The notes under the pieces are model-generated. The model did not search any database and was not told the DNA's origin. It saw only the letters and a list, made by a program, of their open reading frames with translations. Below, one piece after another: positions 2,190 through 50,075 of a DNA stretch of 56,381 bases; position 1 is the stretch's first letter; each line of letters begins with the position of its first letter. The translations under genes were made by a program, and so were the position numbers. This DNA comes from Eubacteriales bacterium (GTDB taxonomy: Bacteria; Bacillota; Clostridia; Oscillospirales; CAG-272): NCBI GenBank assembly GCA_045633025.1, contig JAZQXS010000159.1, positions 1 to 56,381 of the forward strand. Reading direction: 5' to 3'.

Positions 2190-2296
2190 TCACAAGAACT
2201 TGTGAATTTCAATATATTTTCACAACTTCTTATGAATTTGTAACTTTGAACAAATTTGGGAGAATTATTTTATGATAAATTCACAAGAACTTGCGA
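2190..2296 (+). promoter_or_regulatory. Three operator-like 16-bp sites
   Basis: TCACAAGAACTTGTGA (2190-2205, palindromic), TCACAACTTCTTATGA (2220-2235) and TCACAAGAACTTGCGA (2281-2296). They lie upstream of and across the start of the 2272 HTH gene. Confidence 0.45.
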
Positions 2297-2505
2297 ACAA
2301 AATAAAAAGTCTATTAAAATCAAAAAAAATAACAGTCGGAAAAATGCTTTCCGACTGCGGATTGAGTATCAACACATTGGCATCTATGCAATCGGGTGGA
2401 TATTACCCACGCATAGAAGCAATTTGCAAAATAGCCGACTACTTGGATTGCTCCGTAGATTATCTGCTCGGCAGGACGGAGAATCCGAATAGTCATAAAA
2501 AATGA
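2272..2505 (+). CDS. XRE-family HTH regulator (77 aa)
   Basis: HTH VGKMLSDCGLSINTLASMQSG and the typical C-terminal CSVDYLLGRTE. Confidence 0.8.
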   Translation: MINSQELANKIKSLLKSKKITVGKMLSDCGLSINTLASMQSGGYYPRIEAICKIADYLDCSVDYLLGRTENPNSHKK

Positions 2506-2523
2506 GAAAGGATAGATGATGAA

Positions 2524-4059: not shown

Positions 4060-4065
4060 AAAAAT

Positions 4066-4085
4066 CCCTCCCCTTTCGGGGAGGG
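4066..4085 (+). terminator. GC-rich hairpin just after the 2524-4059 stop codon
   Basis: CCCTCCCC-TTTC-GGGGAGGG. The A-run is upstream, and there is no T-run on the plus strand. Confidence 0.45.
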
Positions 4086-4446
4086 CGAACGGAGGAAAAT
4101 AGGCTTTACCACCACCTTTCATTTGGTAAACGTTGAATCTATCGACGATCGTGTACTTTGTAGAAGTATCTGATAGATCAGATCAAGGATCGTGTATTCA
4201 TTGGTCTCTTTCAGCATTTCTCGAATGCCTCTACGTAAAGTGGTCAGGTCGTCGGGTTCCATGTTCGTTGTTTTCTCCTGTTGTTTTTTATTCAGAGGGT
4301 GTTCCCTCTTGTACCTTTATTATACTCCGCAGAAGCGCATTTTGCAATCGGGCAAATATTCATTTGGCACAAATAAATTTACGGCATATATCCGCAAATT
4401 CACTTATTCGCTAAATAAGAAAAACGTAGAAAGTGAGGATTTTTCC

Positions 4447-4827
4447 TTGTACAGAGATCGTTTGGAAGAAATCAGAAAAGAAAAAGGCTTATCTAACCGC
4501 AGGTGGTCTGAAGAAAGCGGCGTTTCGCTTGATACGATCGGACGTATTATTCACCCAGAAAATCCAGACAAGGATTCCCCGAGAGTAAACACCCTTGAAG
4601 ATTTATGCAAGCCGCTTGGCGTAGAACTTTGGGAAATCTTTTATATCGGCGAACACAGCTTTGTTGCGCTCCAAGCTGAACTCCTGGCTTTACGCGAAGA
4701 ACGAGACAAGCTGCTTGCGGAGAACGCCGTGCAAAGCGCAACGATCGATTCCCTAAAGGAAAAAGTGGATTCGCTCAAGGATCAGATCATCGACACCCAC
4801 AACTATTACATGAGGACGAGGAACTAA
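4447..4827 (+). CDS. HTH plus coiled-coil protein upstream of the integrase (possible excision or immunity regulator; start uncertain)
   Basis: In-frame TTG at 4447 after GAGGA. Contains RLEEIRKEKGLSNRRWSEESGVSLDTIGRI and a C-terminal heptad-like LQAELLALREERDKLLAEN. Confidence 0.55.
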   Translation: MYRDRLEEIRKEKGLSNRRWSEESGVSLDTIGRIIHPENPDKDSPRVNTLEDLCKPLGVELWEIFYIGEHSFVALQAELLALREERDKLLAENAVQSATIDSLKEKVDSLKDQIIDTHNYYMRTRN

Positions 4828-4833
4828 AGGAAG

Positions 4834-5961
4834 ATGGAACAATACTACATTTCCTCAACCAAATACAATATTCAAGAGCGCAGTACGAAGCTGAACGGCA
4901 AGGTCTATGACGTTGTGTTCTACCTGCAAACGCTCGATGGCGTGAAAAAGCAGAAGCGGCTATCCGGGTACAAGACCAAGACCGCCGCAAAAGAGGGATA
5001 TACCAGCTTCGTGACAAAGCATTGCACGCTCGCCAAGGTAGCGCCGAAACGAAACGAGGGAGCAACCGAGATTCCGACCGTCGCAGAGATGTTCCCACTC
5101 TACATTCAATCGTGCGCCAACCAAACCAAGGAATCCACCATTTACGACCGCCAAGGGATCTTCAAATCCATCATCCTTCCCATGCTCGGAAGCCTCCGCA
5201 TGACCGAGCTGACAAAGGAACGTCTGTATCAATGGCAAGATCAGCTATGGTCCATGAAAAGTGATCGGACAAAGGATTTCTATAGCTACGAGTACCTTTC
5301 CTCTATCCGAGGACACCTGAGCGCGTTCCTTTCATGGGCCGAGGCGCGCCATAGCTACGCCAATAATCTGAAGCTCGTCAAGAAGCCGAAGCCGCGCGTC
5401 CAAAAGACCGAAATGCAATTCTGGAGCCGCGAGGAGTTCGACCAATTCATAGAGGTGGTCGATGACCCACGTTACAGGATGATGTTCACCATGTCCTTCT
5501 TCACAGGAAGAAGAAAGGGAGAGATCCTTGCGCTCTCCCCCTCCGACATCAAAGCGGATTCCATTCTGTTCAATAAAACCTATTCCCGCAAGACCGTGGA
5601 CAGTTCCCCATACAAGATCACAACGTCGAAAAACGAAAAGATCGGATACACCCCCATCTGCCCCGCGCTGCGGAACGCCCTTGCCGGGTATGAGGGAGAA
5701 GCCCCGTTCTTTTTCGGCGGAGAAAACCCCATCCATGAAAATACCCTCACCCACGCCTTTGAAGCCTATATCAAAAAGGCGGGAGTCAAACGCATCCGCT
5801 ACCACGACCTGCGCCATTCCTTTGTATCTATCCTGCTGCACCACAACGCAAACTATATGGTCGTCGCAGATCTCATTGGAGACACCGTGGATCAAGTCAT
5901 AAAGACCTACGGACACCTCTACGAAACCGATAAAATAAAGGTTGTCGAGAGCATAATTTGA
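4834..5961 (+). CDS. int: Tyrosine integrase
   Basis: Catalytic signature GRRKGEILAL...RYHDLRHSF...TYGHLY. Confidence 0.9.
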   Translation: MEQYYISSTKYNIQERSTKLNGKVYDVVFYLQTLDGVKKQKRLSGYKTKTAAKEGYTSFVTKHCTLAKVAPKRNEGATEIPTVAEMFPLYIQSCANQTKESTIYDRQGIFKSIILPMLGSLRMTELTKERLYQWQDQLWSMKSDRTKDFYSYEYLSSIRGHLSAFLSWAEARHSYANNLKLVKKPKPRVQKTEMQFWSREEFDQFIEVVDDPRYRMMFTMSFFTGRRKGEILALSPSDIKADSILFNKTYSRKTVDSSPYKITTSKNEKIGYTPICPALRNALAGYEGEAPFFFGGENPIHENTLTHAFEAYIKKAGVKRIRYHDLRHSFVSILLHHNANYMVVADLIGDTVDQVIKTYGHLYETDKIKVVESII

Positions 5962-6083
5962 AGCGAAATATTACACAAATATTACATCAACTCAAAAAAC
6001 GCAATATATTGTGCCATATATCGAGGCGCAAACACTATATTTTGCGTTCAAAATACTCTCCCTGTTTCCACCAAACATTAAAA

Positions 6084-6138
6084 AACGGCTATTTTTGTTG
6101 CATTTTGCACAAATAAAATAGCCGTTCGCTTTGTTTTT
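6084..6138. terminator. Hairpin between the convergent int and cysteine desulfurase genes
   Basis: AACGGCTATTT...AAATAGCCGTT followed by CGCTTTGTTTTT, with an A-run upstream. Confidence 0.5.
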
Positions 6139-6194
6139 ATGTTCATTTAGACGATTGTAGAAAATATAAAACGCTTGTAATATTACTAAATTTA

Positions 6195-7331
6195 TTACAT
6201 CGCCTCTCGAATCACTTTAACACAATCAGCAAACGCATCTATCGCTCTATCGATCTCCCATTCCGTCGTGCATCTCGAAAGAGAGATTCTAACCGCGCTC
6301 AACGCTCTTTCATCCGACATTCCCATCGCCCGCAGTACACCGCTTGGCATTGTTGAGCCACTACAGCACGCAGATCCCGTGGAGCAGTATACCCCGTAAA
6401 GATGCGACAGCATCGAGACGAGACCATCCCCTTTGATGCCCTCCAGCGAGACATTCAGGATATGAGGAACCGATCCGTCTATGGCTCCGTTGAGAAGGAC
6501 GCCCCCCACCTTGTTCTCAAGACCAGCGAGCATCTGACCGCGCAGGATGCGGATCCTGTAATCGTCGTGCGCTTCCGAGAGAGCCACCGCCATTCCAATG
6601 ATCCCAGCTACGTTCTCCGTCCCAGCTCGCCTGTTGTTCTCCTGTGCTCCACCCACCAAGAGCGCGTGATAGCGCGTCAGGAGCGTTGGAAGCATCAAGC
6701 AACCGACTCCCTTGGGTCCATGAAATTTATGCGCGGAGAACGCTATGCTTGCCTCCTTCAGCTCGACACCCAGCGATATATGACCGACCGCCTGCGTAGC
6801 GTCGCAGTGATACGAGATCCCTTTCTCCTCGCAGATCTGTGCAACCTCTCGGAAAGGCTGTATCATACCCGTCTCGTTGTTGACTGCCATGAGGCAAACC
6901 ATACAAGTATCGCCCCGAATCTCACGCGCCACAGATTCGACGTCTACTACGCCATTCCGATCGGGATAGACTACCGACAGGGAAAATCCCCTCTCCTTCT
7001 TCAATCGTCTGCAACACTCCAATACAGACGGATGCTCAATGGCGGACACAACGATATGACGCCGACCCATCCGTTCTCCCTCCAATGCATAGTGCAAGAT
7101 CGCCGCATTATTCGCCTCGGTCGCCCCCGACGTAAACACCAATCTCGCAGGATCCACGCCCAGGCACTTGCCTACCATGCCCCGCGCCTTCTCAATCTCG
7201 CCCCGCGCCGCAATCCCCATGCCATGCCCCGAGGAAGCATTCCCGTAGCTTTCTCGCATGATCTCTACCATAGCCGCCATCGCCTTGTCGCTTACCCGCG
7301 TCGTCGCCGCATTGTCCATGTATATCCCCAT
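6195..7331 (-). CDS. nifS: Cysteine desulfurase (class V aminotransferase, NifS/IscS type)
   Basis: YMDNAATT N-terminus, PLP-lysine motif SAHKFHGPKGVG and active-site loop STGSACCSGS. GGAGG lies 6 nt before the ATG. Confidence 0.85.
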   Translation of the reverse strand: MGIYMDNAATTRVSDKAMAAMVEIMRESYGNASSGHGMGIAARGEIEKARGMVGKCLGVDPARLVFTSGATEANNAAILHYALEGERMGRRHIVVSAIEHPSVLECCRRLKKERGFSLSVVYPDRNGVVDVESVAREIRGDTCMVCLMAVNNETGMIQPFREVAQICEEKGISYHCDATQAVGHISLGVELKEASIAFSAHKFHGPKGVGCLMLPTLLTRYHALLVGGAQENNRRAGTENVAGIIGMAVALSEAHDDYRIRILRGQMLAGLENKVGGVLLNGAIDGSVPHILNVSLEGIKGDGLVSMLSHLYGVYCSTGSACCSGSTMPSGVLRAMGMSDERALSAVRISLSRCTTEWEIDRAIDAFADCVKVIREAM

Positions 7332-7613
7332 GATAAACCTCCTAACCCATTATCGTAAAAGTTAAGCCCCTTCCGTAATCGGAGGGGGCTTTTTGTTTCG
7401 CTGCAATCAAGCAGCTCGGAGGGCTACGACGGAACGGGGGTAACGACCATCTGCGCTCCTATTGGCTTGTGACTAAAAACCACTCGATCGTGGGCTGAAA
7501 CCTTGCAAGCCTGACCGTTCATTTGGTCGGTTCTCTTTCCTCGCCCGTCGGAAGAAACAGGCTCCGCGCAGACGGAAGAAGCAGAACCTCCTGCGCTCGC
7601 CTATATTATACCA
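7332..7613 (-). promoter_or_regulatory. Leader of the cysteine desulfurase gene: an extended -10 promoter, about 230 nt of structured RNA, then a terminator-like hairpin
   Basis: On the minus strand, TGGTATAAT at 7613-7605 and hairpin GCCCCCTCC...GGAAGGGGC at 7389-7366, followed by TTAACTTTT and then the RBS. Confidence 0.4.
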
Positions 7614-8491
7614 CTTCCGCGCCCCTTTGTCTACACCTGTTCCAAAATTATTTCTTATCCCGCCGTTTTCACCGCCCAAAGCACGCTCCACCACGCGCAT
7701 CCAAGCCCTTTCCATACATATTTCCAACCCCTCTCATCATGATCCTTAAACACCAATAAATCTATACAAAATACCGCAACCAGCATCGAGAACGCTTTAG
7801 GTGGGGGAAGTGCTACGGCAGGGCTTCCACTTTCGCGCCGCCTTTCGACTTGAAAAGCACCCCGCCCGCCTTTTCTGTTGCTATAATTATATATTATATA
7901 AACAAACGCAAACGGGGACGGCACACCCGGATCGTATCTTTTCCGGTTGATCCCGTCGGCTTCCGTCCCGGTGCGGGCTTCCGCGTTCGCGCGTGTTGTG
8001 AATGATATTCAATCTATATATAAGAACAAGACGCGCAGAGGATGAGACCATATTATAAATACCATAGCTAAAATATAAATAAGAATATAATATATATAAA
8101 TATATAATATATAAGGGCGTTTATTGAATATATAAAGTGGTCAAGCGATTGCATTATATAATAATATAAATGTGTATAGAGGGGGGCGCATGGGCGTAGC
8201 CGTCGATGGGTAGGCGGGGCGTGCCAGGCTTTCGGCTTCGCGCGGCGTTTTTGTTTTGTTGTTATAATTAACAAAATTTGCGGATTTTGAAAAATAATAT
8301 AGCGTCAGCAGAGGCGCGCAGGGGGCGCGTGGGCGCGTTTTGTGGCGTTTGTTTTCATTGCGGATGCGTTCGGGGCTTGTAGGGCGTTTTTTGGGCTTCT
8401 GCGAGGGTTATAATTCCAAAGTATTTAGCAACTTGCACAAATGCGCATGCTTAAAAACGGGCTGTTTTTGTGTAGGTTGCAAAAGTCGTTA

Positions 8492-8520
8492 TTGACTTTT
8501 AGGCGGTTTTGTGGTATAAT
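8492..8520 (+). promoter_or_regulatory. Consensus promoter for the plus-strand island
   Basis: TTGACT at 8492-8497, a 17-bp spacer ending in TG, then TATAAT at 8515-8520. Confidence 0.65.
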
Positions 8521-8545
8521 ATAAGAGAAGAAAGGAGGCGAGACC

Positions 8546-8695
8546 ATGAAGCAGGCGGAGATATTCCGACTGATTGGAGATGATGCCGAGATGATGAGCG
8601 ATTCAACCTTGCAAAAGTTGATTGAGTATCTGAAAAGCGTTAAAGGCTGGACGGATTCCGAAGTCGTGGCGCTGCTTGAACACATCACGAAATAA
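8546..8695 (+). CDS. Hypothetical small protein (49 aa, MKQAEIFRLIGDDAEMMSDSTLQKLIEYLKSVKGWTDSEVVALLEHITK)
   Basis: AAAGGAGG RBS before the ATG and a consensus promoter 25 nt upstream. It is too short to appear in the ORF track. Confidence 0.5.
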   Translation: MKQAEIFRLIGDDAEMMSDSTLQKLIEYLKSVKGWTDSEVVALLEHITK

Positions 8696-8934
8696 AAAAG
8701 GGCTTTCGGTCTAACTTCCTACGGCTAACCGAAAACCCAAAAACGAGAACTAAAGCAAATCAAAAGCAGGGGCGAAAAATCCGCCTGCCGTCCTTGCTTG
8801 CTTTGGCTCGTGATTATTGTACCACAAACGGCGGAAAAAGTCAAGAGAAAATCAAAAAAATATTTTCCTGAACAGATCAGGAGCAGAACAGCGCAAGACC
8901 GCACCAACACGGGCGGCAGCTGGGGAGGTTTATA

Positions 8935-9138
8935 ATGAGCTTTGAACAGACGAAAATTTTTGCGGACCTTGTAAACAATTTTACAAGAATTGCGAACGAA
9001 CACCGGCACGACGTCGGACGGGATCAGATGGCAGCGGATATGGTCGCGCGATGGTCGCGTATACACGGCTCGGATCGGATCGAAAAAGTCGCGCGCAAGG
9101 CTAACCAAAAAGCGAAAGTAAAATTTTATTCTGTTTGA
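8935..9138 (+). CDS. Hypothetical protein (67 aa)
   Basis: GGGGAGG RBS before the ATG. Same strand as its neighbours. Confidence 0.5.
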   Translation: MSFEQTKIFADLVNNFTRIANEHRHDVGRDQMAADMVARWSRIHGSDRIEKVARKANQKAKVKFYSV

Positions 9139-9288
9139 GTTTGGAGGTCTTGAAAATGACTATCAAAAAGTCGTCCCGGCGACTATAAAAAGCAGATCAA
9201 GCCGGGAGCGTTCCCGCCGATCATGGCGGGAGGTTCTGGAACGGTAAGACCGTAAACGCGAAAAGCGGCGGCGCGTTCGGGGGTATCT

Positions 9289-10935
9289 ATGGAATACACA
9301 TTGACGAAAAATGCGGACTTTGGATCTTTGGAAATCACTTTTGACGGCAAGCCCGCTCAGTCGATCCGTGACGCGCTGAAGGCGTTGCGCTTCAGATGGC
9401 ACGGCGTGCGCCGCGTTTGGTACGGATACGCGGACGAACAGACGACCCGCGCAGCTCTTGACGGTTCGACCGTCGGTTGGACCGTTCCGGCGGCAAACGT
9501 TCAGAACAACGACCAGGCAGAACAGCCCGCGCGCGTTTCTTCCCTTCCGTCGATCCGGTTCTATTACAACGGGATCAAGGTCAACGGCGGCGAGCTGATC
9601 AAGTGCCATTATAGCGCGGATGCCGGCAGCGTGACCATCTACGCGCAGAGATACGGCGCAGACCTTCCGCGCGCATTGTTCGACGTGCGGAATGATACCG
9701 ACTTCATGACGGACTACTTCGACAAGGACAGCGCAACGATTCCGGCAGATCATCCCCTTTTCCGCTTTGCGTTCTATATGGCAAAGAAAGAGGAATACAA
9801 GCAGCACGCGCGCACGCTGGAACGTCAGAAGAAAAACCCGCGTTTATATTCCTACTTGACAGCAGAGCAGCGCGCCGCAAAAATGCGCGAGTTTGAACAG
9901 CTCACCGATCCCGGACAACCTACAAACGCGGACCTTCTGAAGATCGAGGACATGAACGCGTCACGCGAGAAAGCACGCAAAGAGGCAGAGGAAGCCGCCG
10001 AGCGCGAGCGCGTCGCAACCTTTGAACGGAAGAAGGCAAGCGGAGTGCAGACCATCCGCGAGGGCTTGGAGCGTTTCCCGCTGGACGAGAACGGCGGCGA
10101 CTTTGTTATGATCGAATGGTCAGAGCATCCCGCATTTTATGAGCACGAGGAGCGCGGCGGGCTGAAGCTCTCCATCATGGCGGCGGATTGGATCATGCGC
10201 GAGCTGGACGAGGAGCAGAACAGAACCCGCGAGACCGAGGACGGGCGCGGCTGGTACGATAAAACGAGCTTTAGGATCTACAAGGGCGGCGAGTGCGTTT
10301 ATAGTGGACGCTATGACCTGGGCGACAATGATGGCGGCTTGATCGCGCACATCAGCGCAAACGCGGCAAACCGTGACCTTGACGAGGACGAGCGAGCCGT
10401 TATCGAGTGGATCAGAGCGCAAGCGGGGATCACTTCCCCGATCCCCGTTCCCGTACACGTTGCGACCATTGCGGAACAGATCACCGCGGCGGACTTGCAG
10501 AGCGGAGAAGATTTTACAATGCTCTATCTTGATCCGTGGATCATGACGGCGACCACCACGGCGGCAACGGTGAACAGCGCGAGCGCGTGCGAGTACGCAC
10601 AGCACAAGGACGCCGCGCGGATCGAGTACACGCCGAAAGGAAAACGGAAGGCGCGAACGATCCACATCAGCGGGCGCGATGCGTGCGTGATATGGCGCGG
10701 CATTCTTCCCGACGTTCCGAACAGTATCAAATACACCGATTGCGGCAGCTCGTCCATGCTCCAGCGCGTCAATTATGCGGGAGAAAATGCGCTGGACTAT
10801 ATGCGGCGCGCGGTAGAATATTATCGCTCTATCGGCTTTGTGCCGGTGTTTGATACGGTATCAGAGCCGGAACAGCCCGAACCCGTGGAAAGTCTGGACG
10901 ATTCCAGTGTGGAATATATCGCATATTATTCATAA
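9289..10935 (+). CDS. Large hypothetical protein. Its N-terminal module resembles domains of large polyvalent proteins from conjugative elements and phages.
   Basis: 548-aa ORF. The N-terminus GSLEITFDGKPAQSIRDALKALRFRWHGVRRVWYGY is recognised by pattern only. Confidence 0.65.
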   Translation: MEYTLTKNADFGSLEITFDGKPAQSIRDALKALRFRWHGVRRVWYGYADEQTTRAALDGSTVGWTVPAANVQNNDQAEQPARVSSLPSIRFYYNGIKVNGGELIKCHYSADAGSVTIYAQRYGADLPRALFDVRNDTDFMTDYFDKDSATIPADHPLFRFAFYMAKKEEYKQHARTLERQKKNPRLYSYLTAEQRAAKMREFEQLTDPGQPTNADLLKIEDMNASREKARKEAEEAAERERVATFERKKASGVQTIREGLERFPLDENGGDFVMIEWSEHPAFYEHEERGGLKLSIMAADWIMRELDEEQNRTRETEDGRGWYDKTSFRIYKGGECVYSGRYDLGDNDGGLIAHISANAANRDLDEDERAVIEWIRAQAGITSPIPVPVHVATIAEQITAADLQSGEDFTMLYLDPWIMTATTTAATVNSASACEYAQHKDAARIEYTPKGKRKARTIHISGRDACVIWRGILPDVPNSIKYTDCGSSSMLQRVNYAGENALDYMRRAVEYYRSIGFVPVFDTVSEPEQPEPVESLDDSSVEYIAYYS

Positions 10936-11005
10936 GCGCAGAACAGACAAAGAGCCGGTAAGCCCTGAACCGCCAGCAATGGCGTCAGGCGCGGCGGGGG
11001 ATATT

Positions 11006-11230
11006 ATGGAACAGATCAAAATCAGGGTTTTGCAAAAAGTCAATTGGTGCGTTGCCGATCTTCTTAATAAATGGGTCAAGGAAAACGGCGGGATTTTTGC
11101 ACGGGATCATTTTTTCGGTGCGCATATAATCAAGGGCGGCGTTAGACATTACCCCGTTGACGGTGTAAAGGTAGAAAGGCACGACGACGGGACCGAAACA
11201 GTCACGGTTTACCTTGTGGTGAGAGATTGA
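11006..11230 (+). CDS. Hypothetical protein (74 aa)
   Basis: Internal ATG after a G-rich RBS. MEQIKIRVLQKVNWCVADLL... Confidence 0.5.
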   Translation: MEQIKIRVLQKVNWCVADLLNKWVKENGGIFARDHFFGAHIIKGGVRHYPVDGVKVERHDDGTETVTVYLVVRD

Positions 11231-11315
11231 CCGAACAGCCGAGGCGGGCGGCATATCCCGCCAAAATAAGCCCATAAGCCGCCACCGATACGGGGCGCGG
11301 GGCGGAGGTCAGAAC

Positions 11316-11489
11316 ATGAAAAAATACATTTGTAGGCTTTTAGTGCTTCCCTGCTTGGTCGTTAGCCTTTTGGCGGTCGTGATCGTAACGGGAGCGATCG
11401 AGAACGGCGGCGCGTTGTCTTTGTGCTGGATCGCATTTGCGGCGATCGGCGCGACGTGGGTGATCATCAGAACAGCCGCCAAGGGCTGA
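11316..11489 (+). CDS. Small membrane protein (57 aa)
   Basis: GGAGG RBS. Hand translation gives MKKYICRLLVLPCLVVSLLAVVIVTGAIENGGALSLCWIAFAAIGATWVIIRTAAKG, with two hydrophobic helices. Preferred over the antisense 11309-11521 ORF. Confidence 0.45.
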   Translation: MKKYICRLLVLPCLVVSLLAVVIVTGAIENGGALSLCWIAFAAIGATWVIIRTAAKG

Positions 11490-11524
11490 AACGTCAGAAC
11501 AGACCGATGGGAGTAGATCACGGC

Positions 11525-11992
11525 ATGAACATTTTTCTACCCTACCCCGAAAGCGCGGCGCGATCTGCGGCGGCTCTAGATGATCGGCGGCTTGTCAAGC
11601 AGATTTTGGAATGCAAGATCCTGCTTGACATTGCCACGCAGAACAGAACAGACGGCTATGCGCGTCACCCCGTCGCCGTACACTACCGAGGACAGACCGA
11701 TTTCCTGCGTTTCTACGGCTTGGAGTGTTGCCGCGAGTATTTGCACCGCTTTAACCGTCCGCACGCCTACGCGCCTTATTTCGCGGCTCTCCGTGCGGGC
11801 GAAAAGCAGCCCGATTATATCCCGTTTTACGCCGAGGGCAGCAGAACAGACCCGAAAAGCATCAGAACCACCGAGAACGTCGGCGATCTATTCCGCGCGA
11901 AGCTCTGCCGCAAGTGGCAGACCGACAGAACAGAACCCCGTTGGACGAACAGAACAGCACCCGAATTTTACAGAACAGCTCGTAAGTCCTGA
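11525..11992 (+). CDS. Pyrimidine-dimer DNA glycosylase / endonuclease V (DenV)-like protein
   Basis: MNIFLPY...LDDRRLVKQILECKILL and DYIPFYAEGS resemble T4 endonuclease V (LADQHLMAEYRE and DYIPHEAS). Similarity judged by eye. Confidence 0.5.
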   Translation: MNIFLPYPESAARSAAALDDRRLVKQILECKILLDIATQNRTDGYARHPVAVHYRGQTDFLRFYGLECCREYLHRFNRPHAYAPYFAALRAGEKQPDYIPFYAEGSRTDPKSIRTTENVGDLFRAKLCRKWQTDRTEPRWTNRTAPEFYRTARKS

Positions 11993-12023
11993 CCTACGGG
12001 CAGGCAGAGAAAAGGAGAACAGC

Positions 12024-12968
12024 ATGACACACGCAGAATACAAAAAGGCGGTCGGGCAGTATCTTTCTGCCCTTCCCTCACTCAATAAAAGCGAACGGAC
12101 ACAGGCGGCATATAAAGCCGTTTTAAGCGCATTTGATGCCTTTTCGGGAAAACACCTTGCCGAGGGCGAGAACGGCTCACAGATAGGCAAATTGGCTGTC
12201 GTGGCGTGGCGTTCCGCGCTTGCGGAGCAGAACAGCAACAACACGGTGCATCACCGACTCGTCTGCCTACACGCTTTTTTCGTTTGGGCGTGCCGCATGG
12301 GGCTTTGCAATGAAAACCCCGTGGACGTTGAGGATATACCCGATTTACAAGAGGTCGAATATGATCTTTTGACCTACGACGAGATCAAGACTATTTTGGT
12401 CGAAACGCCGAAAAAAGGCGTTCACGAAAAAAACACTTGCAGAAACCGCGCGATTGTGTTATTATTATGTACGACGGGACTGCGGAACAGTGAGCTTCGG
12501 CATCTGCGCTTGTCTGACCTTGACTTTGAGAACGGTACGATCTCCGTCCGACACGGCAAAGGAGACAAAAGCAGGACGGTCGCATTCCCTGCCCGCGCGA
12601 GAACGGCGGTGCAGGAATATCTTGCAAGCGGTGCGCGACCTGATTCGGTTGGTCCTGATGGTCTTTTGTTTGGGACAGGCGCGGACGAGAACGGGCACGG
12701 CAGAACAGCCGAGTGGCACGCGATCACGTCGCAGGGCTTGCTTGGCATTGTGAACCGTTACACAGAGAAGTGCTGCGGTCACGCGGTTAGCGTCCACGCG
12801 CTCCGTCACGCGGCGGCATCGCTTTGGGATCACCTCAACATTACGCCGAGCGAGATGCAACAGGCTCTCGGGCATTCGAGCATTACCACCACAATGGGGA
12901 TCTATCGGCACGTTTTGAAATCAGACAAGGCGGCAAAGAGCATCAATGCCGCTCTTGATTCAATGTAA
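12024..12968 (+). CDS. Second tyrosine recombinase (XerC/D-like)
   Basis: AAGGAG RBS. Catalytic motifs TGLRNSEL...VHALRHAAAS...MGIYRHV. Confidence 0.85.
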   Translation: MTHAEYKKAVGQYLSALPSLNKSERTQAAYKAVLSAFDAFSGKHLAEGENGSQIGKLAVVAWRSALAEQNSNNTVHHRLVCLHAFFVWACRMGLCNENPVDVEDIPDLQEVEYDLLTYDEIKTILVETPKKGVHEKNTCRNRAIVLLLCTTGLRNSELRHLRLSDLDFENGTISVRHGKGDKSRTVAFPARARTAVQEYLASGARPDSVGPDGLLFGTGADENGHGRTAEWHAITSQGLLGIVNRYTEKCCGHAVSVHALRHAAASLWDHLNITPSEMQQALGHSSITTTMGIYRHVLKSDKAAKSINAALDSM

Positions 12969-12996
12969 TTGCAGAACAGAAAGGAACAGAACAGAC

Positions 12997-13410
12997 ATGG
13001 AAGAAGCAAAGAAGGAAATCATCATCAGAACAGGAGACAAGGTAATCACAGCGGACGGTCGCGTCGGTCGCGTGACCTCGGTCTGCGACTGCGAAAAATG
13101 TGCAAAACGCGGATTTTTTGAACCCACATATGAGATCAAAGGAGATCCCGATGAGCATTATATCATGATCGGTCAGTATCAAGCGGGATTCCCCGACTTC
13201 TACCTGATCGGCAAGAATTTCTTTGGCAATAAGATCAGCACCGAGGAGATGGCACGAAGGATCGCAGAACAGCGCGAGGTCGTGGAAAGAGAAAAGGAAA
13301 AGCTCGATGCACTCCGAAAACAGTGGTGGACGCTGAATGAGCGCATGATTCCCGATTGGAAAGAGCGCGAGGAAGCACGACGCAAGAAGAACGCAGAACA
13401 GAACACATAA
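12997..13410 (+). CDS. Hypothetical protein (137 aa, CxxC motif, charged C-terminus)
   Basis: ATG at 12997 after AAAGGAAC. ORF on the same strand as its neighbours. Confidence 0.6.
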   Translation: MEEAKKEIIIRTGDKVITADGRVGRVTSVCDCEKCAKRGFFEPTYEIKGDPDEHYIMIGQYQAGFPDFYLIGKNFFGNKISTEEMARRIAEQREVVEREKEKLDALRKQWWTLNERMIPDWKEREEARRKKNAEQNT

Positions 13411-13440: not shown

Positions 13441-15096
13441 TTAGATGATGCAGAACACGGGGACGATACCGTTTGCACCGACGCCTTGGGTAGACGTAAG
13501 ATTTCCGTCCGTATAAACCACTCGCGCAGACGAAGCATTGTTTGTGTTGGCAGATCGCATTCGCCACGTGCGCGCGTTTCCGTTATAGCGTTTGATTCTA
13601 TCGGTTGCAGTCGTGTTTCCTTGCCAGTAGGTGAAAAATTGACCTTCTTGAACGCCGTTATTCAGTACGCCAGCCAACTCTGTATAGGAGATTAAAAACA
13701 CCTTGTCCTCGGTCGTATCGTACAGGGTATCGTCTACAATATCACACGTAGGTATCGCGCTCTTGAGAACGACCGTCCCGATAGAATTGACAAAAGATTT
13801 GTCCTTCCCGTAAAGGAATCCTGCTATATTGGAATTTACGGGCCAGGTATCAAAAACGGTTGCGGGCTTCCACCAGTTTGAGTATCCCGGTGACGCGGGC
13901 GCGGCATCCGAATTGAGCCATTGGCGAATCGCGGAGTCGCGCCATCTGTTTGTTCCGTAAGCGCATCTCTGTGTAAAATTATGCTTCCCGTCGTCTGTAA
14001 AATACTGTCTTTCGAACGATGTAAATACGCCAAGATCGGTAGATTGGGTGGTTCCGTCCCAAATAGTGACCGCGATGCCGGATGCTATAGCGTTTTTGTC
14101 AGCTCTGTAAATGGACACCCTACCATCTGTAATCTGCGAGGTATTATAAGACGGAGATTGAATGACCCCTACCGAATTGTGACGAATGCCGCCCCCCGCC
14201 GGAATGGGAATGGTCGTGGTGAACATATAGGTGGCATCCTGTCCCGTCGAGCCGTCGTAGGCACCGTGGTTCAAGGTAAAGCGGTAATTCCCAGCCGGGA
14301 GCTCGACGTCTGTATAATAAAGGAGCTGAGTACCCGAATAAGGGATGGTGCCGTAATACGGAACCTCGGAAGCCCCGCACACAAGGCAGTTTGACAGATT
14401 GACATTTTTCGGTGTCTCCTGATTGAAGCCGAGCACGTCATAGGAATCCGTCGTGGAGACCATCGTAATGGTCAAGGTGTCACCTACGGAAGGCATTCCC
14501 CCCGAAAGCGTGACACCGAGAAGGGATAGGCTGACCGCTTCCCCGTCCTCTCTGACCCATCCGTTTCCGCTATACGTAAATACATAAGTTCCCGCGATGG
14601 AGCCGTCGAGATAGGAGACGAACGCAAGCGCATCAAGAGACGCGGACAAAGAGGAATTGGAGGAGGTTATGGTGCAGGAATCCCCGTCAACCGTTTCAAG
14701 GGAAAGCTGCTGACCGACGGCGTAGTCCATCGGAGCCGTTCCGAATCGCACCGAGCGTTGAACCGCGTACCAAGACGCGTCATCAAGCGTGGATTGCTCA
14801 AAGTCCTGCGTCTCCCAAACAATCGCGTTTCGGAAGGAATTGTAAATGGTTGCCACCCAAACGGATTGTCCTTTTTTCATGTACGCCGCCTTGGAGGAAT
14901 ACGGAAGCGTCAGAACGGTACGGTCGGAAATAAGGCGCACGTCGCACACGTTCCCCTTCTCCGCGCTTGAATATGGCGGATTGACCACGACCCCCTTATA
15001 TACCCGAAAGCAATCCTTCGTTTGCTTACGGATAGTGTCGGCGGCTATCGTCTCGATGACCTTTCGGATCTGTTGGGTTAATGCAAGCGAACTCAT
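13441..15096 (-). CDS. Tail fibre / receptor-binding protein candidate. Its C-terminal domain resembles the DGR target scaffold.
   Basis: Last gene of the tail module. C-terminus TWRMRSANTNNASSARVVYTDGNLTSTQGVGANGIVPVFCII. Confidence 0.55.
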   Translation of the reverse strand: MSSLALTQQIRKVIETIAADTIRKQTKDCFRVYKGVVVNPPYSSAEKGNVCDVRLISDRTVLTLPYSSKAAYMKKGQSVWVATIYNSFRNAIVWETQDFEQSTLDDASWYAVQRSVRFGTAPMDYAVGQQLSLETVDGDSCTITSSNSSLSASLDALAFVSYLDGSIAGTYVFTYSGNGWVREDGEAVSLSLLGVTLSGGMPSVGDTLTITMVSTTDSYDVLGFNQETPKNVNLSNCLVCGASEVPYYGTIPYSGTQLLYYTDVELPAGNYRFTLNHGAYDGSTGQDATYMFTTTIPIPAGGGIRHNSVGVIQSPSYNTSQITDGRVSIYRADKNAIASGIAVTIWDGTTQSTDLGVFTSFERQYFTDDGKHNFTQRCAYGTNRWRDSAIRQWLNSDAAPASPGYSNWWKPATVFDTWPVNSNIAGFLYGKDKSFVNSIGTVVLKSAIPTCDIVDDTLYDTTEDKVFLISYTELAGVLNNGVQEGQFFTYWQGNTTATDRIKRYNGNARTWRMRSANTNNASSARVVYTDGNLTSTQGVGANGIVPVFCII

Positions 15097-47105: not shown

Positions 47106-47294
47106 TCATTGCACGTAAAATCCGATCTCTACCATGCAGTTGTCGCAGATGACCGTATCGTCGTCAATCTTGTACGCGTAGTCACCCACACGTATCTTGT
47201 ACCTGCAACGCTTGCAAACGTAAAGAACATCGAGCTTCTCAATATAGTTCGGACAAGCCGATGGGCAGAAATCCTGCCTGCATTGGTCACACAT
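47106..47294 (-). CDS. Cys-rich zinc-ribbon protein just downstream of the DGR RT (start uncertain)
   Basis: CDQC...CKRC...CDNC motifs. Confidence 0.4.
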   Translation of the reverse strand: MCDQCRQDFCPSACPNYIEKLDVLYVCKRCRYKIRVGDYAYKIDDDTVICDNCMVEIGFYVQ

Positions 47295-47296
47295 CC

Positions 47297-48331
47297 TTAT
47301 GTTCCTTCCCTTAATAATTTTTCGATCATACTCTTCATGGATCGAGCAAGACTTTCGCAATCGCCCTGCGAAAGGTGATTTTGGTAGGACTGAAATGAGG
47401 TTTTTAGTACCTCCTCGGACCTTTTACCTTTCGACACAAGCAATGCCATTCTTCTGTATTTTCTTTGAGCGTTTCGCTTGTTTTCGTTTCGGACTTTTCG
47501 CACAATCTTGCCGTCGCTCGTCAGATAGGTGTGAAAACCAAGATAGTCCAGCCCATTTTTGATCGGTGCGATCTGCGTTTTTCCATTCAGCGTAAGATCA
47601 AGCGTTTTCAAATACTCCGTGATGATTTCAAGGCAGTTTTTTAGATACTCTTTGCTTGGATGCAGTAAATAAAAATCATCCATATACCGCCCGTAAAATT
47701 CAATCCCGAGTTCTCTTACAATCAGCTTATCCAATCCATCCAAATAAAGGAGCGCAAGACCTTGATTGATCTGATTGCCAAGCGGAAGCCCTTTTCCATT
47801 GGTACTATCTATAAACAAATGGCATAGCCAGCATATATCGGAATCGGAGCCAAAATAATAATCCACCGTATCCTTCATCTGCTCATGGGAAATGTTATAG
47901 AAAAACTTGGATATATCGCATTTGAGAACGTAACCATTCCGTTCATACCTTTGGTAGAATCTTTCCATGTGAAAAGATAGCCGATCAAGTCCGAATAGCG
48001 TCCCCTTGCCGATCTGTCCAGCGCAGTTATCGTACAGAAAAATGCGTTGGAGTTTCGGTAGAAGTACGTTGTCACATAGACTGTGCTGCACGACCTTATC
48101 CTTGAATGAGGTCGTCTGAATCAACCGTTCCTTTGGCTCGTAAACCTTAAACTCATGATATGGAGATATTTGATAGGTTTTGCTCTTTAGCTGATCGATA
48201 AGAATATTGATTCCCTCAATCGGCATCATTCCAAATTTTGCCGAGCTTTTCTTATACCCCTTCCCACATTTGGATTTGCGGTAGGCTCGGTACATATTTT
48301 CAAAGTCGATCACTTTCTCAAAATCGGTCAT
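47297..48331 (-). CDS. DGR reverse transcriptase
   Basis: YMDD catalytic box and LGNQINQ in place of the group II/retron motif. A TR lies immediately upstream and avd is adjacent. The ATG is at 48331; the longer ORF extension merely reads through the TR. Confidence 0.9.
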   Translation of the reverse strand: MTDFEKVIDFENMYRAYRKSKCGKGYKKSSAKFGMMPIEGINILIDQLKSKTYQISPYHEFKVYEPKERLIQTTSFKDKVVQHSLCDNVLLPKLQRIFLYDNCAGQIGKGTLFGLDRLSFHMERFYQRYERNGYVLKCDISKFFYNISHEQMKDTVDYYFGSDSDICWLCHLFIDSTNGKGLPLGNQINQGLALLYLDGLDKLIVRELGIEFYGRYMDDFYLLHPSKEYLKNCLEIITEYLKTLDLTLNGKTQIAPIKNGLDYLGFHTYLTSDGKIVRKVRNENKRNAQRKYRRMALLVSKGKRSEEVLKTSFQSYQNHLSQGDCESLARSMKSMIEKLLREGT

Positions 48332-48438
48332 GCAGTACAGTCCTTTTTGTTTATCTTTTTCCAAAGAAAGGTTGCGTGTTCTTTCGATGTGGTGCGCTGA
48401 TTTCGGATGTTTCCTACTCTGTCTGGCTTTCCACCGAT

Positions 48439-48505
48439 ACGGGCGAACCCCCATGTTGTCGTTGTTGTAGTTGTCGTTGTTGATGTTGCCGCGCGGGGAA
48501 ACGCA
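48439..48505 (-). repeat. DGR template repeat (TR, 67 nt)
   Basis: Minus strand reads TGCGTTTCCCCGCGCGGC-AACATCAACAACGACAACTACAACAACGACAACATG-GGGGTTCGCCCGT. It is adenine-rich, and both flanks are identical to the VRs. Confidence 0.9.
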
Positions 48506-48535
48506 AAAAAATACAACTCGCAACCTATTTGCTAT

Positions 48536-48904
48536 TTATTTCCTTTCGGACGTTCTCCATGCAATCGAAAGGAATTTCACATCGGAAACCATTTTTGTCC
48601 AGTAAGCCGCAGACTCCGGTGAAAGGAGCTGCAAGTTCATAGAAAGTTCAATGTAAAAAATAAGTTGATTGCATTTCGTGATGGCTTCTGTAATCATTTC
48701 GCAACGTCTGGCTTTTTGCGTTTGATTGTTCACAGAATTTGCTTCCAACAGGGTATCGTAAATATCAAGGCTTTTTTTCTGCATTTGATCTACCAACGAG
48801 TGCCTATACTTTTTAGGGTATCGATTGCAGTTTGACGTCAACTTAAACGTATGTACTGCAAGTTCCTTTGCCTTGATAATTACCCTCAAATCATTATCTG
48901 CCAT
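48536..48904 (-). CDS. avd: Avd accessory variability determinant (four-helix-bundle protein)
   Basis: 122 aa and helical. Lies between the target gene and the TR, which is the canonical DGR position. Confidence 0.75.
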   Translation of the reverse strand: MADNDLRVIIKAKELAVHTFKLTSNCNRYPKKYRHSLVDQMQKKSLDIYDTLLEANSVNNQTQKARRCEMITEAITKCNQLIFYIELSMNLQLLSPESAAYWTKMVSDVKFLSIAWRTSERK

Positions 48905-48906
48905 TT

Positions 48907-49434
48907 TTACTCGTCGGAAGATTCAAAGATAGCAGAGGAAAAGATCCAAAACGGGCGAACCCCCATGAAGTCGATGAAGTAGTAGACGAAGTTGACGTAG
49001 CCGCGCGGGGAAACGCAAGCAATCCAATCATCATCGGTATATTCGCTCGTTTCCCATGGAGTAGAAAGCCAAAACCAATCCGTTAAGGGATACTTTGCAA
49101 AAATGCTTCGGTTGCTTCTGTAAAAATCGAATGTAGGGAGGCTGACCTTCGATCTCAATACACCGTGCTTCCGAGAACCATCCACAGAGATCAAATCGGT
49201 TTCAAATTCCAAGACATTCTCTGCACCGATCTCGCGCTCAATTTCGGGCAGATATTCTCCCAACACCCTTTTGAGAATGTCGCTTTTGGAAAGGTCATTG
49301 GTTGGTCCGAACCGAGACTTAAACAGAAAATCCTTTTGCACCGCAGCAATTCCGCCCTGGCACTCACCGAATCGGATAAATTCGTACTTTCCGATTTTGA
49401 ACGTTTCTCCGATTTTTGCTTTGATTTTTTCCAT
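48907..49434 (-). CDS. DGR variable protein 1 (175 aa)
   Basis: AAGGAG RBS. C-terminus ...WFWLSTPWETSEYTDDDWIACVSPRGYVNFVYYFIDFMGVRPFWIF contains VR1. Confidence 0.85.
   Translation of the reverse strand: MEKIKAKIGETFKIGKYEFIRFGECQGGIAAVQKDFLFKSRFGPTNDLSKSDILKRVLGEYLPEIEREIGAENVLEFETDLISVDGSRKHGVLRSKVSLPTFDFYRSNRSIFAKYPLTDWFWLSTPWETSEYTDDDWIACVSPRGYVNFVYYFIDFMGVRPFWIFSSAIFESSDE
48951..49017 (-). repeat. DGR variable repeat VR1 (67 nt)
   Basis: Same length as the TR. All 11 differences fall at TR adenines. Confidence 0.9.
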
Positions 49435-49457
49435 TTTGCTTCTCCTTTTTAGTTTTT

Positions 49458-50075
49458 TCAAGATTCAAAGATATTGGATTTCAAGATAAGAAACGGGCGA
49501 ACCCCCAAGTTGCCGTCGACGTAGCCGTAGTCGAAGCAGCCGCGCGGGGAAACGCACTTGACAAGCGTTGAACTTTCGTGCCTCGGAGTGCTCCACGGTG
49601 TCACCAACCACCAGTATTTATACAGCCGATCCAAATCAAGAATGTCAACGTAACGGCGATAAAGATCGGTCGTAAGAAGCGAGCACTTTTCGCTGATCTT
49701 TCCATAGTCGCGCAACCCATCATCGGAAGTGAGGTCCACCGTATGTTCTACGATATTTTCCTCTCCAACGATTGCGGCAATCTCCGCAGCAAACTCACGG
49801 CAGACCTTCTGTGCGTTGCTTCCTCGGAAATCGTTGTTGGCTCCGAACTTGACGTTCTCTTTGTAAAGAGATTTCAAGAGCAGCGAGACCGTATCCCCGG
49901 ATTTCTCAAGAACGAGAAATTCGTATTTGCCGATACGTGCGATCGTCTCCCCCCTTTCGTTCTGCTTGGTGTAAAAACGGTCCTTCACGCCAAGTGCCTT
50001 TTTGATCTCGGAGAGCTTGTCCTCCTCGATCTCGATCTTTTTGCCATTCAGGCAGATGTAGTTTTTGGTTTTCAT
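49458..50075 (-). CDS. DGR variable protein 2 (205 aa), a paralogue of variable protein 1
   Basis: GGAGG RBS and ATGA coupling. C-terminus ...YWWLVTPWSTPRHESSTLVKCVSPRGCFDYGYVDGNLGVRPFLIL contains VR2. Confidence 0.85.
   Translation of the reverse strand: MKTKNYICLNGKKIEIEEDKLSEIKKALGVKDRFYTKQNERGETIARIGKYEFLVLEKSGDTVSLLLKSLYKENVKFGANNDFRGSNAQKVCREFAAEIAAIVGEENIVEHTVDLTSDDGLRDYGKISEKCSLLTTDLYRRYVDILDLDRLYKYWWLVTPWSTPRHESSTLVKCVSPRGCFDYGYVDGNLGVRPFLILKSNIFES
49493..49556 (-). repeat. DGR variable repeat VR2 (64 nt, one codon shorter than the TR)
   Basis: Flanks are identical to the TR. After a 3-nt gap, every difference falls at a TR adenine. Confidence 0.85.

Follow-up and report, generated by a model that had tools for sequence, protein, structure and literature searches.

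Organization of the cassette

The minus strand of the window (the whole 56,381-nt stretch of DNA analysed here) carries a compact cassette composed of two target genes, an avd gene, a TR and an RT gene, with a short spacer between the last two (Table 1). Our open reading frame analysis, combined with Pfam and PHROG profile matches, upheld the order target2, target1, avd, TR, RT that an earlier note had read from this strand. The module is flanked by a C5 methylase and DUF551 on one side and by SSB, YqaJ and RecT on the other, while the tail genes lie ~30 kb away. A promoter/terminator scan returned nothing beyond shuffled expectation, and no terminator was detected between the cassette and its neighbours.

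Table 1. Positions of the genes, repeats and predicted RNA elements of the cassette in the window
Feature	Position	Strand	Description
target2	49458-50075	minus	205 aa; ORF; 40%-identical paralogue of target1
VR2	49493-49556	minus	64 nt; within target2
target1	48907-49434	minus	175 aa; ORF; single DUF6273-fold protein
VR1	48951-49017	minus	67 nt; within target1
avd	48536-48904	minus	122 aa; accessory variability determinant, PHROG match
Upstream strand of the predicted long-range RNA duplex enclosing the TR	48513-48525	minus	RNAalifold and pair counts, 39 loci
TR	48439-48505	minus	67 nt
TR-RT spacer	48332-48438	minus	107 nt
Predicted template:primer duplex	48432-48436 with 48385-48389	minus	Covariation
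Predicted interrupted tetraloop stem-loop	48394-48427	minus	Covariation; resembles the Rfam RT-2 motif
Downstream strand of the predicted long-range duplex	48370-48382	minus	Covariation
Predicted hairpin	48354-48367	minus	Spacer RNA
Conserved A-rich tract AUAAACAAAAAGG	48342-48353	minus	After the hairpin, spacer RNA
RT	47297-48331	minus	344 aa; ORF intact

Substitutions in both VRs fall on TR adenines

Read on the minus strand, the TR is TGCGTTTCCCCGCGCGGC AAC ATC AAC AAC GAC AAC TAC AAC AAC GAC AAC ATG GGGGTTCGCCCGT, and it can be divided into a constant 5′ part of 18 nt, 36 nt of AAC-rich mutagenic codons, and a GC-rich 3′ part of 13 nt. It holds 19 adenines (counted over 68 nt), and an A-to-N change at these positions can reach no stop codon. 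VR1 is equal in length to the TR and mismatches it at 11 positions, all of which are TR adenines (P ~5e-8 for this to occur by chance), as the earlier note had observed. VR2 likewise carries 11 substitutions relative to the TR, 11/11 at TR adenines, together with an in-frame deletion of 3 nt. This codon deletion was absent from the earlier note, and VR2 measures 64 nt rather than 67. No third VR was found in the 56-kb window, the DUF6273 tail protein included, in agreement with the original count of one TR and two VRs.

The 13-nt GC-rich GGGGTTCGCCCGT occurs exactly three times in the 56-kb window (in the TR, VR1, and VR2), where ~0.03 copies would be expected by chance. Immediately beyond it identity stops (TTT... 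in the VRs, TAT... in the TR), and a sequence check agreed with the earlier description of identity ending right after the flank, where the VRs continue with TT and the TR with AT. The proposal that this flank is the likely IMH is reasonable, but an IMH is not distinguishable within it, as the 13-mer is the same in the TR, VR1, and VR2; discrimination between donor and recipient must therefore lie downstream of the 13-mer. Identical IMH and IMH* have been reported for some DGRs (PMC5758913). DNA folds of 80 nt across each VR 3′ end revealed no GC-rich inverted repeat after the VRs of the kind that forms the BPP-1-style hairpin (z = -0.24 and +0.60), the only stem being a 3-bp GGG/CCC inside the 13-mer. 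Since such a downstream GC-rich inverted repeat (cruciform) occurs in just 34% of DGRs (PMC5758913), it does not define DGR membership.

The TR is indeed short, as had been remarked, though its 67 nt fall inside the published range, and a length of 65-75 nt is conserved family-wide. DGR reverse transcription is known to generate in-frame indels beside AAC repeats, which are found in 7% of DGRs (Wu et al., PMC5758913). Codon indels in the VRs and the short TR were also considered as possible novelties and were rejected, both having been described in Wu et al. 2018.

Reverse transcriptase and Avd

Among solved structures, the best match of the RT was the Bordetella phage bRT (8ub7; E = 2.5e-31), aligned over its full length (residues 5-329), compared with E-values of 1.8e-13 for group II and 9e-6 for retron-type RTs. 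Profile searches matched Pfam RVT_1 (6e-13) and PHROG phrog_1423 (1.6e-106). Both motifs listed in the earlier note, YMDD and LGNQINQ, were located in the 344-aa ORF; the catalytic YMDD aligns with bRT, and LGNQINQ, a variant of I/LGxxxSQ, aligns with IGSLTSQ of bRT, with N replacing S. The nearest deposited phage RTs are those of nd12 (48% identity), nd4 (44%), and Lelie (39%), with FP_Brigit also among them, and all of these are DGR-bearing phages. Together, the alignments assign the RT to the DGR type and indicate a relationship to bRT. A group II, Drt3a, or retron identity suggested by NCBIfam was rejected, as these matches were far below their cut-offs and NCBIfam contains no DGR RT model.

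The avd product matched PHROG phrog_3206, 'Avd protein of DGR' (E = 2.1e-19), and fell below the curated cut-offs of NCBIfam DivGenRetAVD (37.5 bits, cut-off 80), Pfam bAvd (19.1 bits, cut-off 40), and 23S_rRNA_IVP. The position of avd is conserved in all relatives.

The targets are predicted to be single DUF6273-type domains

The two tandem target paralogues both matched PHROG phrog_9958 (6e-28 for target2 and 7.5e-23 for target1). Pfam DUF6273 (PF19789) matched target2 at 19.1 bits, under the cut-off of 23.5, and did not match target1; precomputed PF19789 matches are nevertheless present on many target homologues at 55-63% identity. In the AF2 model of target1 (pLDDT 95), the variable residues 146-157 form a beta-hairpin with strands at 147-151 and 157-159, and the best BFVD matches of the model are DUF6273 phage proteins (1.3e-7, TM 0.76). 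The sole significant PDB match of the target model was the IgA peptidase of Thomasclavelia ramosa (9qa6); the match may lie in the N-terminal domain of this peptidase, which is annotated as DUF6273 (PMC12402451). From the high-confidence predicted fold and the precomputed PF19789 matches on homologues, both targets appear to be standalone DUF6273-type domains. Each consists of this one domain, with neither an additional anchoring domain nor an N-terminal hydrophobic signal. The DUF6273 targets of published DGRs likewise have a C-terminal VR (PMC10743442, PMC11792537).

A separate, non-diversified DUF6273 domain is located on the distal tail protein (13441-15096). When the targets were compared with this domain directly, neither BLASTP nor profile comparison showed significant similarity, and the two share the Pfam family alone.

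A conserved RNA fold around the TR

Folding the TR-spacer RNA as a single sequence gave no informative result (z = +0.95), and the structure became visible only from the alignment of related loci. Across 39 loci, the predicted long-range duplex comprises 11 pairs, with 99% of cells paired and compensatory changes in 7/11. Directly at the 3′ end of the TR is a predicted 5-pair template:primer duplex, separated by 2 nt from the strand of the stop duplex. Taken as a whole, the fold has 27 pairs with 97.2% of cells paired, versus 35-51% in slid controls, and compensatory changes in 15/27 pairs; the observed values were reached by 0/500 shuffles. The spacer RNA of the window keeps all conserved pairs except one A-A in the long duplex. 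This covariation indicates that the RNA flanking the TR has a conserved fold.

The cPRT-Stop and template:primer elements have been described for the Bordetella DGR RNA (Handa et al., bioRxiv 10.1101/2023.10.23.563531), and the fold found here agrees in topology with both. By analogy, we infer that the long-range duplex is a functional equivalent of the avd:Sp 'cPRT Stop' duplex of that RNA. The core of the spacer, AGACAGAGUAGG-tetraloop-CCGAAAUCAG, also fits the consensus 5′ stem-loop of Rfam RT-2 (RF03077), an RNA motif found beside RT genes, whereas the long variable insertion and the 3′ part of that model are unmatched. The RT-2 hit on the spacer scored 25.8 bits (E = 2e-4 in a 311-nt search), under the gathering threshold of 40.

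Related loci and TR-to-VR information flow

No match to the cassette emerged from a megablast search of 50,697 phage records, and an exact scan of IMG/VR and JGI metagenome contigs for the TR/VR anchor pattern gave none. After these exact pattern scans came up empty, near-identical loci were reached via protein clusters. Approximately 45 related loci with the same module were found in MAGs of animal-gut Oscillospiraceae, Acutalibacteraceae, and other Clostridia. SSB, methylase, or RecT genes flank the module in these loci, and tail genes are never within 10 kb.

In the 74 VRs of 39 related loci, 53.6% of TR-A positions differ, as opposed to 0.4-1.7% of the C, G, and T positions. Family-wide, 833/868 VR substitutions are at TR adenines, as are 22/22 in the window, and in-frame indels occur in ~5/74 VRs. 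Each VR agrees with its own TR at 98-99.6% of non-A sites, even though the TRs vary there across the family. This is well illustrated by L034, a 94%-identical locus whose TR reads ATC where the window TR has ATG, a difference at a non-adenine base, with both VRs of each locus carrying the base of their own TR; VR2 of L034 is full-length. A further locus, L037, has a TR that ends in AAC, and here VR1 follows the TR, while VR2 ends in TTC, an uninformative change at an A site. These patterns point to information transfer from TR to VR.

Within protein clusters at ≥90% identity, members are near-identical outside residues 146-157 and unrelated within them, from which recent VR diversification among near-identical relatives is evident at the sequence level. 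L034-type VRs are identical in three separate samples, and thus turnover is not fast at the consensus level.

Comparison with described DGRs

The prototype DGR of Bordetella phage BPP-1 (mtd-avd-TR-brt) has the same order of target, avd, TR, and RT. The resemblance extends to the full-length RT alignment with bRT, the presence of Avd, the A-to-N mutagenesis of AAC-rich codons, and the C-terminal VR. In contrast to BPP-1, the window has two tandem targets instead of one, a TR of 67 nt instead of 134 nt, a GC-rich 3′ element that is the same in TR and VR (so that no IMH and IMH* can be told apart), and no inverted repeat downstream of the VRs. Furthermore, its targets are single DUF6273 proteins of 175-205 aa rather than a trimeric Mtd with N-terminal tail-attachment domains, and its cassette is found among early/recombination genes rather than beside tail genes.

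In the gut phages nd4 and nd12 (Baykov et al. 2023, PMC10743442), whose RTs are the nearest deposited ones, one TR also serves two VRs and tgt2 is a DUF6273-only/C-lec-like target with a C-terminal VR on a beta-hairpin; a weak homologue of target1 is encoded in nd4. [quoted passage not shown] The TRs of nd4 and nd12 contain 25-28 adenines versus 19 here.

The Faecalibacterium prophages Lelie and CP11 and Toutatisvirus (PMC11792537; bioRxiv 10.1101/2024.10.15.618418) resemble the window in being temperate, with gut Oscillospiraceae-type hosts, and in having one DGR with two VRs, where both targets contain DUF6273 and the VR is at the C-terminus of the domain. Their targets, one large and one small protein (or a Hoc-like Ig-bearing target), are not paralogues encoded side by side; Toutatis has its DGR between the integrase and the tail genes, with a distance of 17 kb separating the TR from the second VR. 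The window targets, in contrast, are tandem paralogues directly upstream of avd, in the early region.

Proposed mechanism and alternative readings

Our analysis supports the earlier note's principal claim of a complete DGR, with an RT, an Avd, a TR directly upstream of the RT, and two C-terminal VRs with adenine-only mismatches. We conclude with high confidence that the region is a complete DGR in a prophage of an uncultured gut Clostridia bacterium (Oscillospiraceae/Acutalibacteraceae neighbourhood) that rewrites both targets, and the sequence evidence suggests that the DGR is probably active.

In the mechanism that we propose, a transcript would cover the avd-TR junction along with the TR (67 nt) and the spacer (107 nt). 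It would fold such that the long-range duplex closes off the TR and the short duplex 3′ of the TR presents the priming nucleotide, with the interrupted tetraloop stem-loop sitting between these two duplexes. The RT, presumably in complex with Avd, would cis-prime at the TR 3′ end, at a predicted site at ~48437-48439, copy the TR while misincorporating opposite adenines, and halt at the long-range duplex, the putative stop site. The cDNA may then replace the homologous 64-67 nt at the 3′ end of both tandem paralogues through a presumed integration step guided by the GC-rich constant flanks TGCGTTTCCCCGCGCGGC and GGGGTTCGCCCGT. The outcome would be randomisation of a 12-residue beta-hairpin on a small DUF6273 (C-type-lectin-like) domain, with a potential diversity of ~1.3e11 amino-acid sequences per target and without the emergence of stop codons. 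Most likely, both target proteins serve the phage by binding ligands.

Whether the locus is a DGR at all leaves very little room for doubt. Were the RT that of a retron, a group II intron, or a defence system, the repeats would reflect paralogue conservation or gene conversion, and the best NCBIfam matches do name such RTs, all far under their cut-offs and in a collection that holds no DGR RT model. The adenine-only substitution pattern, in the window as well as family-wide, already refutes this reading; moreover, of the three repeats, one does not code for protein and is next to the RT, the locus includes an avd gene, bRT leads the other structural relatives by 18 orders of magnitude in E-value, and the nearest phage RTs are all from described DGRs, which renders this reading practically negligible. 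A DGR that has recently been silenced, with parts that look intact after homing has ceased, is a more substantial but still improbable reading. The codon deletion in VR2 would then represent decay after the last homing, given that VR2 is 3 nt shorter than the TR while its L034 counterpart is full-length; the identity of L034-type VRs in three samples and the lack of read-level variation in some studied DUF6273-targeting phage DGRs (PMC11792537) are in keeping with this. However, none of the ORFs (RT, Avd, and the two targets) is disrupted, and the conserved pairs of the spacer RNA are all kept except the one A-A. VR2 also bears the window-specific G of its own TR, and thus it was rewritten after the split of the window and L034 lineages. 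The deletion itself is of the AAC-adjacent, in-frame type that reverse transcription in DGRs is known to produce (PMC5758913) and that recurs among the related VRs, and, being internal, it leaves the flanking homologies needed for the next homing.

The role of the targets invites a different doubt. They could be non-structural diversified binders expressed with the early genes of a genuine DGR, and not receptor-binding proteins of the virion, a reading that we consider unlikely. The module lies between methylase/DUF551 and SSB/YqaJ/RecT genes, distant from the tail genes both in the window and in its relatives; the targets have a single DUF6273 domain devoid of an anchor or an N-terminal hydrophobic signal; and the distal tail protein already has a non-diversified DUF6273 of its own. 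Conversely, published readings of DUF6273 DGR targets are all receptor-binding or adhesin, small single-domain DUF6273 phage targets have already been described (nd4_tgt2, nd12_tgt2, and the small targets of Lelie and CP11), the position of a gene is a poor guide to timing or location, and no terminator separates the cassette from its neighbours. Along similar lines, it is rather doubtful that the targets are DGR-diversified soluble binders acting inside the infected or lysogenic cell (e.g. as inhibitors that can be adapted against host defence or rival phages), or that they are released adhesins. We retain the reading of an intact, probably active prophage DGR whose targets are most likely ligand binders.

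Implications

Two-target phage DGRs on DUF6273 proteins, short TRs, identical IMH/IMH*, and in-frame VR indels have all been published already; hence, the window DGR is a clean example of a published kind and not a new kind, and it leaves the current understanding of DGRs unchanged. The placement of the module among early/recombination genes, together with targets lacking an anchor domain, is its unusual point. No deposited phage genome is close to this DGR, in view of the empty megablast search and a best RT identity of 48%. With its ~45 relatives, the window constitutes a compact natural system in which a 67-nt TR and a 107-nt spacer accompany just two or three very small targets, and offers a clear example of target-number change via unequal recombination between VRs. 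The covariation independently supports the RNA architecture that cryo-EM recently revealed for the Bordetella DGR. Finally, the locus sharpens the question of what the small single-domain DUF6273 targets, encoded far from the tail module, bind; if the soluble-binder reading were true, it would take phage DGR biology past tropism switching.

Repeats and target proteins

Direct reading of the minus strand between 46500 and 51500 and alignment of TR, VR1 and VR2 confirmed the coordinates and sequences assigned to TR and VR1 in the earlier note, as well as its statement that VR1 departs from TR solely at adenines: all 11 mismatches fall on TR adenines, with a chance probability of ~5e-8 (19 A in 68 nt of TR). 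The second VR that the note had counted is present and likewise carries only adenine-site substitutions (11 of 11), while its in-frame 3-nt deletion in the GAC-AAC-TAC stretch had gone unmentioned. Identity among the repeats stops, as claimed, directly after the 13-nt GC-rich element, of which the 56 kb window has exactly three copies (0.03 expected). The element is the same in TR and VRs and offers no distinction between donor and recipient, no inverted repeat was found 3' of the VRs, and an A-degenerate TR pattern retrieved no further VR in the window. Both the non-discriminating element and the missing inverted repeat are known from other DGRs, some of which have identical IMH and IMH*, an inverted repeat being found in 34% only (Wu et al., PMC5758913). 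The TR codons (7 AAC, 2 GAC, 1 ATC, 1 TAC and 1 ATG) cannot reach a stop codon and, as calculated from the TR sequence, permit ~1.3e11 peptide variants per target.

Features of the DGR cassette and its prophage
Feature	Position	Strand	Details
Target 2	49458-50075	minus	205 aa; phrog_9958
VR2	49493-49556	minus	
Target 1	48907-49434	minus	175 aa; phrog_9958
VR1	48951-49017	minus	length equal to TR
Avd	48536-48904	minus	122 aa; PHROG 'Avd protein of DGR', 2e-19
TR	48439-48505	minus	TGCGTTTCCCCGCGCGGC AAC ATC AAC AAC GAC AAC TAC AAC AAC GAC AAC ATG GGGGTTCGCCCGT
RT	47297-48331	minus	344 aa
Duplex (a)	48513-48525 with 48370-48382	minus	just upstream of TR with spacer; 11 pairs, 7 compensated; encloses TR
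Duplex (b)	48432-48436 with 48385-48389	minus	5 pairs; strand 48432-48436 lies 3-7 nt past end of TR/VR homology
Stem-loop (c)	48394-48427	minus	interrupted, tetraloop cap; like Rfam RT-2
Hairpin (d)	48354-48367	minus	followed by conserved AUAAACAAAAAGG tract
Cys-rich ORF	47106-47294	minus	62 aa; zinc-ribbon-like
Distal tail protein	13441-15096	minus	551 aa; last of tail module
Tyrosine integrase	11580-12968	plus	followed by host genes

The two targets are paralogues (40% identity) that lack any extra domain or signal-like N-terminus. Target 2 matches Pfam DUF6273 slightly under the cut-off, and target 1 has >430 homologues, many with a precomputed PF19789 match. An alignment of 44 of these homologues is conserved throughout apart from one stretch (residues 146-157) flanked by the invariant motifs CVSPRG and GVRPF, and this stretch corresponds precisely to the VR-encoded codons. 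In a very confident AlphaFold2 model (pLDDT 95), these residues are predicted to lie on a beta-hairpin. Foldseek searches with the model returned DUF6273 phage proteins as top matches in BFVD (1.3e-7, TM 0.76); in the PDB, classical C-type lectins matched weakly and the sole significant match was the Thomasclavelia ramosa IgA peptidase, whose N-terminal domain, which may be the one aligned, is annotated as DUF6273 (PMC12402451).

Reverse transcriptase and Avd

The RT's top match among all PDB sequences, spanning the whole protein, is the Bordetella phage bRT (8ub7, E = 2.5e-31), with far weaker matches to group II (1.8e-13) and retron-type RTs (9e-6). The YMDD and LGNQINQ motifs recognized in the earlier note align to YMDD and IGSLTSQ of bRT, respectively. 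Among the matches listed from the deposited phage collection, the RTs most similar to it are those of nd12 (48%), nd4 (44%), FP_Brigit and Lelie (both 39%), all phages previously described as DGR carriers, followed by Vibrio phage RTs; Bordetella records were counted there without being listed. The NCBIfam and Pfam Avd matches of the Avd protein are under cut-off. Directly downstream of the RT lies a Cys-rich ORF, which has no family match; tblastn at E < 1e-5 found no counterpart in more distant relatives. A 60-aa ORF occupies the same place, between RT and SSB, in L083, a related locus.

Related loci and activity

Searching with the RT yielded 20 loci in IMG/VR and ~35 in genomes (64-89% RT identity), the latter from goat, deer, yak, buffalo and other gut MAGs of Oscillospiraceae, Acutalibacteraceae, Faecousia, Congzhengia and unclassified Clostridia. 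With few exceptions, the loci share the module target2, target1, avd, TR, RT, with a TR of 65-75 nt and a spacer of ~100-107 nt. Among 74 VRs pooled from 39 loci, 53.6% of TR adenines differ in the VRs; the corresponding figures for C, G and T are 0.8%, 0.4% and 1.7%. Changes are unevenly distributed: A-to-T (394) and A-to-G (380) changes far outnumber A-to-C (59).

The most direct test of TR-to-VR transfer is provided by sequence comparison with L034, a locus reached via the 90% protein cluster to which target 1 belongs and sharing 93.6% identity with the window across the cassette. The two TRs show one non-adenine difference within the repeat (ATC in L034, ATG in the window), and in each locus both VRs carry the base of their own TR, indicating that both lineages rewrote both VRs after splitting. 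VR2 of L034 is full length, which places the window's 3-nt deletion in the VR and not in the TR. Contigs of three separate samples (L034, L035 and L036) have identical VR1 and VR2, so consensus-level VR turnover in the L034 lineage is not rapid. Other 90% clusters contain up to 15 proteins that are near-identical apart from wholly different VR residues, and within one of them (P0039) the VR varies from 10 to 13 residues at >90% identity elsewhere. In-frame codon indels between VR and own TR are frequent in the family, recurring in ~5 of 39 loci (window VR2, -3 nt; L037 VR1, L040 VR1 and L067 VR2, +3; L053 VR1, +6), which fits RT slippage on AAC repeats, as proposed by Wu et al. 2018. The window's element is a real DGR and, by this comparative evidence, was recently active; activity in its own prophage is inferred.

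Between the window and L034, mismatches also bunch (n=17) in the ~80 nt directly 5' of VR1 (49019-49099, minus strand), outside any TR homology, changing residues ~115-139 (e.g. KYPLTDW/KHPADDW and DDDWIAC/DDYWNAC). Such clustering could stem from selection on residues that pack onto the variable hairpin, or from recombination in this patch.

A further relative, L083:755-2979 (ENA ERZ28633341; 87% nucleotide identity to the cassette), has three VRs spaced by exactly 552 nt, all three with adenine-site differences. Its middle gene fuses a target 1 body to a target 2 C-terminal tail, the product expected of unequal crossing-over between VR1 and VR2, and tails of this chimeric kind are also present in P0133, P0136 and P0139, members of the P0039 cluster.

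RNA structure around the TR

The avd-TR-spacer-RT junction was aligned for 39 loci, and pairs were counted in the predicted consensus structure. In this structure 97.2% of cells are paired, compared with 35-51% for slid partners; compensatory changes occur in 15 of 27 pairs, and none of 500 shuffles reached the observed values. Elements (a)-(d) match the arrangement that Handa et al. (bioRxiv 10.1101/2023.10.23.563531) describe for the Bordetella DGR ribonucleoprotein. In that complex, a short stem-loop and A-minor adenosines come after an avd:Sp 'cPRT Stop' duplex, 2 nt separate this duplex from a TR:Sp template:primer duplex, and a stem-loop that binds Avd is located downstream of TR; the same study predicts such elements for 207 out of 278 DGRs. 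In the window, the 3' strand of duplex (b) stops 2 nt short of the duplex (a) strand. By analogy with Bordetella, cis-priming would proceed from nucleotide 48385, a G paired to C48436 in the window and an A paired to U in 35 of 39 relatives. The first templated base would lie at ~48437-48439, coinciding with the end of TR/VR homology, and termination would be expected at duplex (a), coinciding with the end of the 5' homology. The Rfam RT-2 RNA (RF03077) matches 48310-48431 (minus strand) at 25.8 bits, under its gathering score of 40, and shares the conserved spacer core AGACAGAGUAGG-loop-CCGAAAUCAG. A covariance model devoted to this DGR RNA class could be built from the alignment of 39 loci (A3).

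Prophage context and comparison with published DGRs

The window is an entire NCBI contig, with a minus-strand prophage running from ~56 kb down to 13.4 kb. Genes for a NUMOD-domain protein, C5 methylase, DUF551, the DGR, SSB, YqaJ, N6/N4 methylase, DUF1351 and RecT precede those for portal, tape measure and distal tail proteins, an order that places the DGR in the early region, ~30 kb from the tail genes. In relatives, too, the neighbours of the DGR are SSB, methylase or RecT genes, and no tail gene lies within 10 kb of it. The distal tail protein has a strong C-terminal DUF6273 domain (Pfam 1.1e-18) whose relationship to the targets is only remote, and it contains neither a VR nor the GC-rich element. 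Of the DUF6273 domains in the phage, one is thus fixed and two are diversified by the DGR. We consider it improbable that the anchor-less, early-region targets are something other than virion receptor-binding proteins. Besides the tyrosine integrase, the host flank and prophage end (1-13400) contain an LPD25-domain protein (9289-10935), a class-V aminotransferase (6195-7331, minus strand), a second integrase (4834-5961) accompanied by an HTH protein, and, in a patch of low GC content (36%), a protein with a restriction endonuclease domain of the Mrr type (2524-4059). This gene content suggests an additional small integrated element.

DGRs in which a single TR serves two VRs on DUF6273 proteins have been published for phages (PMC10743442; PMC11792537; bioRxiv 10.1101/2024.10.15.618418). 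In nd4 and nd12, tgt2 is a single-domain, C-lec-like, DUF6273-only protein (PMC10743442); the Faecalibacterium phages Lelie and CP11 have large and small DUF6273 targets (PMC11792537), and Toutatisvirus has a two-VR DGR acting on DUF6273 (bioRxiv 10.1101/2024.10.15.618418). In the survey of Wu et al., 13% of DGRs have two targets, mutagenic regions span ~30-100 bp, and TR/VR length differences, mostly multiples of 3 beside AAC and attributed to RT slippage, occur in 7% (PMC5758913). All features of the window lie inside the envelope of published DGRs, its particulars being two tandem paralogous mini-targets, a short 13-nt 3' constant element and the early-region location. The element is a DGR of an already known type, and the earlier note is upheld in both its observation and its interpretation.
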